A stretch of 64,000 nt of DNA from Escherichia coli (lineage in GTDB: Bacteria; Pseudomonadota; Gammaproteobacteria; Enterobacterales; Enterobacteriaceae): assembly GCF_044324785.1 (NCBI RefSeq), contig NZ_CP172127.1; one strand, written 5' to 3'. This document shows positions 1,219 to 2,324 of this stretch, piece after piece. Both the position numbers and the translations under genes were made by a program. How positions within the stretch are numbered: the stretch's first letter is position 1; every line of letters starts with the position of its first letter. The notes beneath the pieces are model-generated. The model was not told where the DNA came from, made no database searches, and was given only the letters and a program-made list of their open reading frames with translations.

Positions 1219-2036
1219 AGCAACCTCCGTGAAAATGAATAATAATCCGCACATATTGCATGTACAACATGTCGGGCGGATGAGATAAGCGAGTCGACAT
1301 CTGGCGTTACCGGGGAATATCAAAAAATGTCATGGTTATGTGATGATTTAGTCTGGGATTTTACTTCAGAGAAACGGGTGTCTGTTTAGTCAACAAAATA
1401 ATCACAAACGCAACGGATGGGTTCTCGACGTTATTCACGACAGGCTCGTACATTACAGCGAGTAATAAAAACCTGATATGCAAAGTCAAACCAATATTCA
1501 TAATGTCTTTTTATTCACAACAATAAATAATTCAATAACAATCATTGAAATGAATGATGGTTTGTATAAGGAATATACGCTGCCGCCCCACCCTGATAAC
1601 ATGATCTGCACATTGCCATCTTAACGTCGTTAAACACTGGCTTAATAGTGGATATTTAAAATTAGGAATTTATTAAATTCACCTGATGAATATCATAAGC
1701 AAATAGCATAGAAAATAATGACAACTCCCCCGAGGGGACCATTTCCAAAGCACTGCACCACCACCTGGTGCCCGGATGATCTTGCTTCAGTGGTAAGAGT
1801 ACCTGATTCATTGTTCCCAAAATGGTGTTTTCCCCTGCCCCTCCAATAATGTGCAGCTCTCACGTGATAATCTATTGATTAGGTTATATTAAGAATCAAT
1901 ATTTGAAATACATCCATTTTCTTGAATAAATCAACATGTTTATTTATCAATTGCTGTTTTAGCTCTGACTCATCAAGCTCTCCATATTTGTCCTACAGAT
2001 AATCGCGAATAAATACAGAGAACGCCATTTATCCTT

Positions 2037-2249
2037 TTAGCATACCTGCCGGATATTTTTATTTGTATTAATATTAATTGCATCTCCAACTCCGAGCATA
2101 TCCATCATTAAAAACATTTTGAGATTATAGAATGCCTGTAATAACAACTGAAACATCAGCACAATGTGAATAGTTAGTTTCTTTTCAGAGGAAATGAAAT
2201 AGACAAGCTGAATGAAAGGGAGAGTGATATAAATTAAAAAACATAACAT
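2037..2249 (-). CDS. yncH: Small hypothetical protein, 70 aa, YncH-like by size and position
   Basis: ORF-track call in the AT-rich spacer next to yncG; hydrophobic N-terminus. Assignment is from remembered K-12 synteny only. Confidence 0.4.
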   Translation of the reverse strand: MLCFLIYITLPFIQLVYFISSEKKLTIHIVLMFQLLLQAFYNLKMFLMMDMLGVGDAININTNKNIRQVC

Positions 2250-2324
2250 GAATCTAATTAATTACGTTCATCATTGTGGATAAAGTTACTGAATAATAAA
2301 TAACATAATCTTCTGGTATCCCAC

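Follow-up and report, generated by a model that had tools for sequence, protein, structure and literature searches.

The window analyzed here is a 64,000-nucleotide stretch of Escherichia coli DNA, and the subject of this report is the 1106-bp spacer at positions 1219–2324, which lies between yncG and vgrG of an auxiliary type VI secretion system (T6SS) island. The annotation was taken from the record of E. coli strain N3, NZ_CP031609.1, which matched the window at 100% (window position x equals record position 3406620 + x). Below, N3 denotes the window sequence, and K-12 coordinates refer to NC_000913.3 unless marked as old. In this annotation, vgrG, yncH, and yncG all lie on the minus strand and are followed by ansP on the plus strand; the feature coordinates in an earlier note on this DNA agreed with it exactly. 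The vgrG gene of the window is "vgrG2" (z2262) of enterohemorrhagic E. coli (EHEC), which heads the rhsE island (naming of PMC7216683). The spacer consists of four parts, namely a leader upstream of vgrG, single-copy DNA, yncH, and a short gap before yncG. The leader is non-coding and of low nucleotide diversity, and its distal end carries a module common to five types of auxiliary T6SS island. The features of the locus are as follows.

1–1218, minus strand: N-terminal part of vgrG, with the start codon at 1218–1216; the gene continues beyond the window start (N3 annotation).
1219–1692, minus strand: non-coding leader or regulatory region that moves with vgrG, 474 nt, 37% GC (paralog comparison and diversity).
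1224–1228, minus strand: GGAGG, the vgrG Shine-Dalgarno sequence, located 5 nt before the ATG and within the 11 nt common with Sakai vgrG3.
1693–2036, no strand: non-coding DNA specific to this locus, in single copy and without annotation; 3575 of 5426 genomes carry it at 95–100% identity.
1735–1860, no strand: GC-neutral, non-coding patch, 50.8% GC (37.0% to its left, 1219–1734; 29.7% to its right, 1861–2324).
2037–2249, minus strand: yncH, a 70-aa hydrophobic orphan open reading frame (ORF) of family DUF5445 (PF17520; Pfam E-value 7e-38, profile positions 1–52 of 52).
2250–2324, no strand: 75-bp gap between yncH and yncG; on this side, the variable segment ends at the yncG stop codon.
2325–2942, minus strand: yncG (N3 annotation).

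Composition and accessory distribution of the spacer

The GC content of the spacer is 35.5% (64.5% AT, compared with 51.2% AT in the whole window), against 57.6% for the vgrG part at 1–1218, 47.1% for yncG, and 48.8% for the whole window. Only 2.1% of the 1106-nt windows in the 64 kb are equally AT-rich. In 200-nt windows, GC drops from 55% to 41% over the vgrG start, and AT tracts of at least 6 nt number 26.2 per kb in the spacer versus 12.4 in the window. The windowed GC bears out the earlier description of an AT-rich 1.1-kb spacer with a sharp compositional shift relative to its flanks, and yncH, which had been singled out as the only ORF of note, is both the only annotated gene and the longest ORF in it. 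The spacer had been treated as a single stretch, but its left 474 bp are a separate conserved leader belonging to vgrG.

A scan for YncG with one genome per species found that Citrobacter sedlakii and a divergent Escherichia (locus L010) retain the synteny of ansP and yncG. Homology to the window ends at 2327 in the divergent Escherichia and at about 2357 in C. sedlakii, and E. coli genomes without yncH likewise match only from 2327 on. After yncG, both genomes carry a sulfatase-like gene, with the flavin reductase gene yddH farther along, and the divergent Escherichia alone carries a diguanylate cyclase gene (our reading of the ORF translations). With homology ending at the yncG stop codon, the entire spacer, yncH included, falls inside the variable segment. 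Within E. coli, the 344-nt segment 1693–2036 was present in 3575 of the 5426 complete genomes and missing from about a third. The spacer is not a conserved core intergenic sequence, as it is absent from about one-third of E. coli and from the DNA downstream of yncG in Citrobacter and the divergent Escherichia. The notion of island-border DNA holds with regard to the sharp shift and the accessory distribution; the border of the variable island itself, however, is placed by these alignments at the yncG stop codon (2324/2327) and not within the spacer.

The same site in E. coli has at least five occupancies, including the vgrG2–rhsE arrangement of this window. In strain ZYB39, it holds genes for an HExxH effector and a lipoprotein, vgrG, a DcrB-like gene, and rhs, and yncG is mostly deleted. 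In other strains (e.g., locus L078), a PAAR gene and a long vgrG lie beside an intact yncG, and some E. coli carry an ISAs1 element alone. K-12 retains 1286–2324 at 98% identity and has lost 1219–1285, vgrG, and the 5' part of rhsE; there, a truncated RhsE lies beside yncH, followed by ydcD and ISAs1 copies. A second, independent deletion joint is found near 1308 in strain PI24.

1285–1286, no strand: K-12 deletion joint (pairwise blastn against K-12 loci, and K-12 annotation).

In NZ_CP135649.1 and NZ_AP042500.1, IS1 is inserted in the same spacer: the match is split into two or three pieces, and an IS1 transposase is annotated beneath.

The vgrG leader and its distal module

In its coding part, vgrG shares 95.5% identity with the vgrG3 gene in the main T6SS cluster of Sakai, and homology begins only 11 nt before the ATG. 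A copy of the leader with 79% identity is located upstream of a paralogous vgrG (EHEC vgrG1) next to cusS, where vgrG1 is followed by a DcrB-related/DUF1795 gene and then an Rhs gene. The two leader copies differ by indels of 8, 3, 7, 4, and 1 nt, and because these break every ORF in it, the leader is non-coding. Its identity to the cusS paralog is 73% in the proximal, 78% in the middle, and 91% in the distal part (1574–1692), and that of the vgrG coding sequence is 92%. The leader was found in 4601 of 5426 E. coli genomes, in up to four places per genome. Segment 1693–2036, by comparison of copy number, occupies a median of one place per genome and at most two, bears no annotated feature, and matches none of the other island types.

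To estimate nucleotide diversity (π), ten genomes were aligned that had been picked at even steps down the similarity ranking. The π value was 0.0083 in the leader, 0.019 in 1693–2036, 0.0275 in the patch, 0.021 in yncH, 0.025 in yncG, and 0.047 in vgrG. At third codon positions it was 0.049 (yncG) and 0.114 (vgrG), and at second positions 0.0065 and 0.0093, respectively. The leader value is the lowest of any segment, 6- to 14-fold below the neighboring third positions and equal to second codon positions; the leader thus varies as little as the most constrained coding positions next to it. We propose that it is under purifying selection. Folding of the leader RNA was unremarkable, with z-scores of −1.6 for the N3 leader and +1.6 for the paralogous leader.

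The distal part of the leader contains the shared module, which has the following elements.

About 1567–1698, minus strand: module common to five auxiliary T6SS island types, comprising an AT-rich site AATTTAATAAATTCCTAA (1679–1662), the −10-like TAAGAT, 6 nt, and the core.
1618–1623, minus strand: −10-like hexamer TAAGAT (TATGAT in the PAAR–vgrG type), of which TA.GAT is invariant in six aligned representatives.
1575–1611, minus strand: 37-nt core GTGCAGATCATGTTATCAGGGTGGGGCGGCAGCGTAT, the only piece common with the PAAR–vgrG type.

The module is 91% identical to the cusS paralog, versus 73–78% for the remaining leader. Identity is 75–77% in the ZYB39-type and ISAs1-only loci (ZYB39-type and strain-1438-type in our feature table), and the core 1575–1611 is found at 89–92% identity in the PAAR–vgrG type. 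In the alignment of six representatives from the five island types (alignment A3), the invariant order toward the operon is AATTT.ATA.A.TCC.AA, about 25 nt, CG.TA.GAT, 6–7 nt, and GTGCAGAT.A.G..ATCAGGG, so that TA.GAT always stands 6–7 nt ahead of GTGCAGAT; in most island types, GCGGTAGCGT comes after ATCAGGG. The module lies about 210–470 nt upstream of the first operon gene, which is vgrG, the HExxH effector gene, or the PAAR gene, and is always directed toward the operon.

A profile search with the module found one copy within the 64-kb window; the main T6SS cluster of Sakai and the yncG loci of Citrobacter, Klebsiella, and Enterobacter gave none. A partial copy is present in a metagenome-assembled genome labeled Citrobacter sp. 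(locus L019), which shares 91.5% identity with E. coli in its yncG region. Scanning metagenomes with the pattern CCCTGATNNCNTNATCTGCAC gave 120 loci, 94 of which were homologous, all E. coli-like and all in known island types; the other 26 were chance matches in unrelated GC-rich DNA. Thus, the 94 homologous matches of this pattern scan included no relatives outside Escherichia. In the literature searched, we found no description of a leader module across the five island types. Such a conserved element upstream of five islands offers a concrete target for studying the control of orphan vgrG–Rhs islands. Apart from the shared module, there is little out of the ordinary in the finding, which amounts to an AT-rich island border, reported to be bound by H-NS in K-12, and an orphan ORF of doubtful status.

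A leaderless small ORF starting at the core (37 aa, from 1611) was considered and rejected, as it is not conserved across island types: by our reading of the frames, a 4-nt deletion truncates it in the cusS type, an early stop interrupts it in type 5, and there is no ATG in ZYB39.

Several observations were made on the islands themselves. In a metagenomic locus (L089, about 7240–7295), a break interrupts a cusS-type module at 16 nt upstream of the −10-like hexamer, and unrelated GC-rich DNA follows beyond it; this represents a rearrangement endpoint inside the module. The ZYB39 island (L006, 3863–4791) opens, before vgrG, with a 189-aa HEMMH zinc-protease-like protein and a 120-aa putative lipoprotein, which are annotated merely as hypothetical and resemble an effector–immunity pair. 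The PAAR–vgrG island beside yncG (L078, 347–3055) encodes an 801-aa VgrG, which, to judge from its glycine/aspartate-rich linker and additional C-terminal domain, may be an evolved VgrG that carries an effector domain. In N3, the RHS core gene downstream of the vgrG of the window is annotated as frameshifted (L001, 1–3944), and the island toxin may be inactive though vgrG is intact.

The module as a putative promoter and alternative explanations

Promoter-like sites occur at 8.1 per kb in the spacer versus 3.3 in the window, and H-NS-motif-like sites at 3.6 versus 1.4 per kb. The AT-rich site of the module (1662–1679) differs from the H-NS high-affinity motif at no more than two positions. As a promoter, the module has a matrix score of 5.0 in N3 and 9.2 in the cusS type, with an invariant −10-like TA(A/T)GAT and a weak −35. 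TA(A/T)GAT keeps three critical sigma-70 −10 positions at a fixed distance from the core. From this arrangement, we infer that the module may function as a promoter common to the islands, with transcription starting at a conserved point near 1611; the predicted start corresponds to K-12 position 1527577 (+) and would give a 5' untranslated region (UTR) of about 393 nt.

We judge it reasonably likely that the spacer is accessory, E. coli-specific island DNA comprising a control leader of the vgrG2–rhsE operon with a shared promoter module, silenced by H-NS, together with filler DNA and the doubtful yncH. In the proposed mechanism, the module would act as a sigma-70 promoter with its −10 hexamer TAAGAT at 1623–1618 and a start near 1611. 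The conserved AT-rich site, which resembles the H-NS high-affinity motif, would lie at about −50 to −70, and conservation of the first ~37 transcribed bases might reflect a role as an operator or 5'-leader element. The vgrG transcript would then carry an AT-rich 5' UTR of about 390 nt, and H-NS would coat the leader DNA and presumably silence the operon up to the arrival of a counter-silencing signal. The DNA at 1693–2036, including the patch, appears to be non-coding filler with spurious promoter-like sites. The other sites to be weighed are as follows.

1239–1267, minus strand: proximal promoter-like site TTGTAC-17-TATTAT, with the best sigma-70 score in the spacer (consensus and position-weight-matrix scans); a prediction only.
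1318–1334, plus strand: Pho-box-like site, K-12 form TATCAGAAAAATGTCATG (motif mapped from the PhoB peak).
1462–1489, minus strand: "best-match" promoter TTGACT-17-TATTAC of Shimada et al. (PMC3946193), mapped to the window; its spacer is 16 nt in N3.
1726–1738, minus strand: GC-rich hairpin TCCCC-TCG-GGGGA with a poor T-tail (terminator scan).
1864–1903, both strands: cluster of promoter-like sites (position-weight-matrix scan), near the K-12 sigma-70 binding peak at ~1844 described below.

The earlier note had suggested that such a spacer may hold promoters or H-NS-bound DNA, and both suggestions agree with published work on the homologous, 98% identical K-12 DNA. By genomic systematic evolution of ligands by exponential enrichment (gSELEX), Shimada et al. 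reported a site of RpoD holoenzyme with an HNS mark in the K-12 yncH–rhsE spacer (PMC3946193, Table 3), a weak sigma-70 holoenzyme binding site whose peak is at old coordinate 1525368 with an intensity of 0.05 (supplement of PMC3946193). The K-12 spacer is also flagged as H-NS-bound in vivo at 1527862 in PMC10294691, citing Kahramanoglou 2011. At the same coordinate, 1527862, Fitzgerald et al. (PMC10294691) found a weak PhoB peak of score 1, the lowest class, by chromatin immunoprecipitation sequencing, and they classed such PhoB sites in H-NS regions as transcriptionally inert. In N3, the half-sites of the Pho box stand 10 nt apart, not 11. Compared with nine other genomes, N3 has two private 1-nt deletions, one at 1322 in the PhoB box and the other at 1466, in the A-run of the TTGACT-17-TATTAC spacer. 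This published promoter was not adopted, because in the paralog a 7-nt deletion disrupts the site and because about 350 nt separate it from the peak that the authors themselves reported. For FlhDC, a weak gSELEX peak falls at about 1976 after conversion. Two further candidates for the spacer were rejected: a published RpoN peak (1527534, old coordinates) falls within the rhsE pseudogene by our conversion, and a peak of the RpoS set (1528272) is located in ydcD instead.

Promoter prediction for vgrG gave the best sigma-70 score at the proximal site 1267–1239. This predicted site would give a leader of about 14 nt; the cusS paralog does not conserve it, and K-12 has lost it by deletion. The terminator scan found one hairpin, compared with 1.1 expected by chance, which is not significant; it could be a weak terminator for yncG/yncH transcripts.

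Several points weigh against the module as an H-NS-silenced promoter. The top-scoring promoter-like site of the spacer is the proximal one, not the module, and a simple consensus scan gave three promoter-like sites, fewer than the 5.5 expected from shuffles. The −35 of the module is poor and variable (TTAAGC, TTGAGC, TTCGCA, or none). The weak gSELEX peak converts to about window position 1844 (our conversion), some 230 nt from the module, and the promoter picked by the authors of PMC3946193 (1489–1462) differs from it. The H-NS data are all from K-12, where vgrG is deleted. The low leader diversity is based on ten genomes, and recent recombinational spread could give the same pattern. Finally, the module is also found beside an ISAs1 element in strains without any vgrG, which indicates that it can be maintained in the absence of an operon under its control.

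Comparison with known systems would place the leader among H-NS-silenced island regions such as the EHEC main T6SS cluster, which is H-NS-repressed (PMC13141884). Like these, the spacer is AT-rich and accessory, has dense promoter-like sites, is reported to be H-NS-bound in its K-12 homolog, and has directly downstream of it a T6SS operon that is silent under laboratory conditions; unlike them, its leader is as conserved as second codon positions, which is unexpected for merely coated DNA. A second point of comparison is h3R, the hcp3–vgrG3 region of EHEC, which is likewise non-coding and immediately upstream of a 95.5% identical vgrG. It controls vgrG expression, and a promoter of its own and an inhibitory 5' UTR have been proposed (PMC13141884). 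However, h3R is 209 nt long, visibly GC-rich, and follows hcp, whereas the present leader has 474 nt and 37% GC and follows unrelated DNA. Homology between the two was considered and rejected, since blastn with word size 7 gave matches only from 11 nt before the ATG.

It is possible, though we hold this only tentatively, that the ~130-bp module (AT-rich site, TA(A/T)GAT, N6-7, GTGCAGAT..ATCAGGG..GCGGTAGCGT) is a dedicated cis-regulatory cassette that puts several unlinked auxiliary T6SS operons under one regulator or signal. The operons would be vgrG1–rhsF, vgrG2–rhsE, effector–vgrG–rhs, and PAAR–vgrG; on this rather speculative reading, they would be independent of the main T6SS promoter, and the 37 transcribed bases would serve as an operator or RNA element. 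The orphan vgrG islands of EHEC were reported to be independent of the main T6SS promoter (PMC13141884, 2026), and a vgrG1 promoter swap yielded no VgrG1 or RhsF protein (PMC13141884). The orphan vgrG islands of Pseudomonas aeruginosa are reported to have coordinated RpoN/Sfa2-dependent promoters (PMC8855297), and RsmA control of orphan vgrG genes is cited in PMC13141884. The shared concept is a common upstream control element that switches scattered vgrG–effector islands together. By eye, no sigma-54 −24/−12 motif was evident in the module. The locus is also that of the classical E. coli RhsE element, for which the literature searched mentions neither the upstream leader nor the shared module. 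The RhsE element itself was reportedly described by the Hill laboratory with a linked vgr gene and H-repeat/ISAs1 elements. Other accounts of the same observations must be weighed against the promoter module.

The first of these accounts takes the spacer as inert, decaying border DNA that is coated by H-NS for its composition, with the promoter and PhoB sites as noise and the real vgrG promoter at the proximal site 1267–1239. The promoter-like and H-NS-like motifs are enriched only ~2.5-fold, as in any AT-rich DNA, the consensus scan is below the shuffle expectation, and the proximal site outscores the rest of the spacer in the sigma-70 scan, all of which would fit inert DNA, as would the PhoB sites called transcriptionally inert (PMC10294691), the chance occurrence of a 70-aa ORF in 28% of shuffles, and the unremarkable RNA folding (z-scores −1.6 and +1.6). 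Such an origin is hard to reconcile with a leader diversity 6- to 14-fold below that of adjoining third codon positions, with a distal module at 91% identity between paralogs against 73–78% in the intervening leader, and with its recurrence in five otherwise unrelated island types; moreover, conservation in the paralog does not extend to the proximal site. We consider this account unlikely.

The module might also be the outer end of the island, that is, a recombination anchor or a relic of an att or insertion site at which vgrG–effector cassettes are exchanged or lost, for example with ISAs1 (H-repeat). In every case, the module forms the outer limit of conservation on the ansP/yncG or cusS side, and it is kept beside the ISAs1 transposase in genomes without vgrG; independent deletions end in or near the leader (1286 in K-12 and about 1308 in PI24), and the L089 module is broken at −16 and joined to unrelated GC-rich DNA. 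Against these observations, no integrase or recombinase is annotated nearby, the module has a constant orientation relative to the operon, and its invariant positions are consistent with a −10 element held at constant spacing from the core. In addition, the divergence of the module tracks the island type, which indicates island cargo rather than a chromosomal site. An island end of this kind seems to us improbable.

The GC-neutral patch, yncH, and other features of the window

The GC-richer patch at about 1735–1860, which the earlier note had pointed out as a possible gene remnant, is real, but its 50.8% GC is simply average for the E. coli genome, so that the patch is GC-neutral and not GC-rich. 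A gene remnant finds no support: no homolog was found, and the patch segregates a 1-nt indel at 1771 and is the most polymorphic non-coding piece, its π of 0.0275 being three times that of the leader. The indel occurs in four of the ten genomes and frameshifts all three ORFs crossing the patch (43, 52, and 56 aa). Among seven small ORFs searched against Pfam and NCBIfam, the only match was DUF5445 for yncH, with none for the patch ORFs. The 56-aa patch ORF, the only one searched against 5.8 billion proteins, gave three sporadic calls (two E. coli and one unnamed ENA contig), and tblastn of ORFs from 15 related loci against 1693–2036 gave chance-level matches only. Rfam 15 returned no match over 1000–3300 at E-values up to 1, and ARAGORN gave no tRNA or tmRNA; the region 3' of yncH had a folding z-score of −0.7. 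By these comparisons, the patch appears to exist in this island type only.

A hidden product, either a small protein (the 37-aa ORF from 1611 or the 43- to 56-aa patch ORFs) or a small RNA, with the patch as part or remnant of a gene, is highly improbable: several ORFs of 30–56 aa exist, three frames are open over the patch, the 56-aa ORF is called in a few genome annotations, and a promoter-like site inside yncH (2152–2124) is aimed at the patch with its hairpin at 1726–1738, but there is no Rfam match (E-value 1), no tRNA, and no Pfam/NCBIfam match for small ORFs other than yncH, the homologs of the 56-aa ORF are three sporadic calls with tblastn at chance level, the indel at 1771 frameshifts the patch ORFs, the 37-aa ORF is truncated or absent elsewhere, and the folding z-score is −0.7.

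With regard to yncH, 158 homologs were found, all in Escherichia or unnamed contigs, and the 120 matches listed were at least 84% identical. As far as this search shows, the DUF5445 family consists only of Escherichia sequences with at least 84% mutual identity, and membership is therefore uninformative on function or translation. The ratio of nonsynonymous to synonymous diversity (πN/πS, ten genomes) was 0.41 for yncH, compared with 0.13 for yncG, 0.09 for vgrG, and 0.56–0.70 for non-coding control frames. In yncH, π at codon positions 1, 2, and 3 was 0.008, 0.025, and 0.030, respectively, position 2 being about like position 3. The ORF is intact in all ten genomes, and no Shine-Dalgarno-like sequence was found ahead of its ATG. 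An ORF of at least 70 aa arose in 27.7% of composition-preserving shuffles of the spacer. In K-12 transposon-directed insertion-site sequencing, yncH was among the low-insertion genes (PMC5821084). Since a third of E. coli lack yncH, we read the low insertion as protein occlusion of the DNA, probably not essentiality. Taken as a whole, the data support yncH only weakly as a gene, and we treat it as an annotated orphan ORF of doubtful coding status. For annotation, the value of the analysis lies in a border set at the yncG stop codon, a doubtful yncH, and a patch that is not a gene remnant.

Outside the spacer, other 1106-nt windows with less than 40% GC were found at 11445–13958 (ortT, yncL, and part of patD), 53659–54851, and 62837–63989. 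The 3' third of hrpA (41483–45385, minus strand) has 32–38% GC at 41600–42900, versus about 50% in the rest of the gene, so that one of the most AT-rich stretches of the window is inside a housekeeping gene. Between ydcF and hrpA, at 40587–41380, an SMI1/KNR4-family gene and a small hypothetical gene lie beside a truncated ORF fragment (40313–40378). SMI1/KNR4 proteins are often orphan immunity proteins for Rhs, contact-dependent inhibition, or T6SS toxins. The aldA gene (37762–39200) is annotated as frameshifted (pseudogene) in N3.

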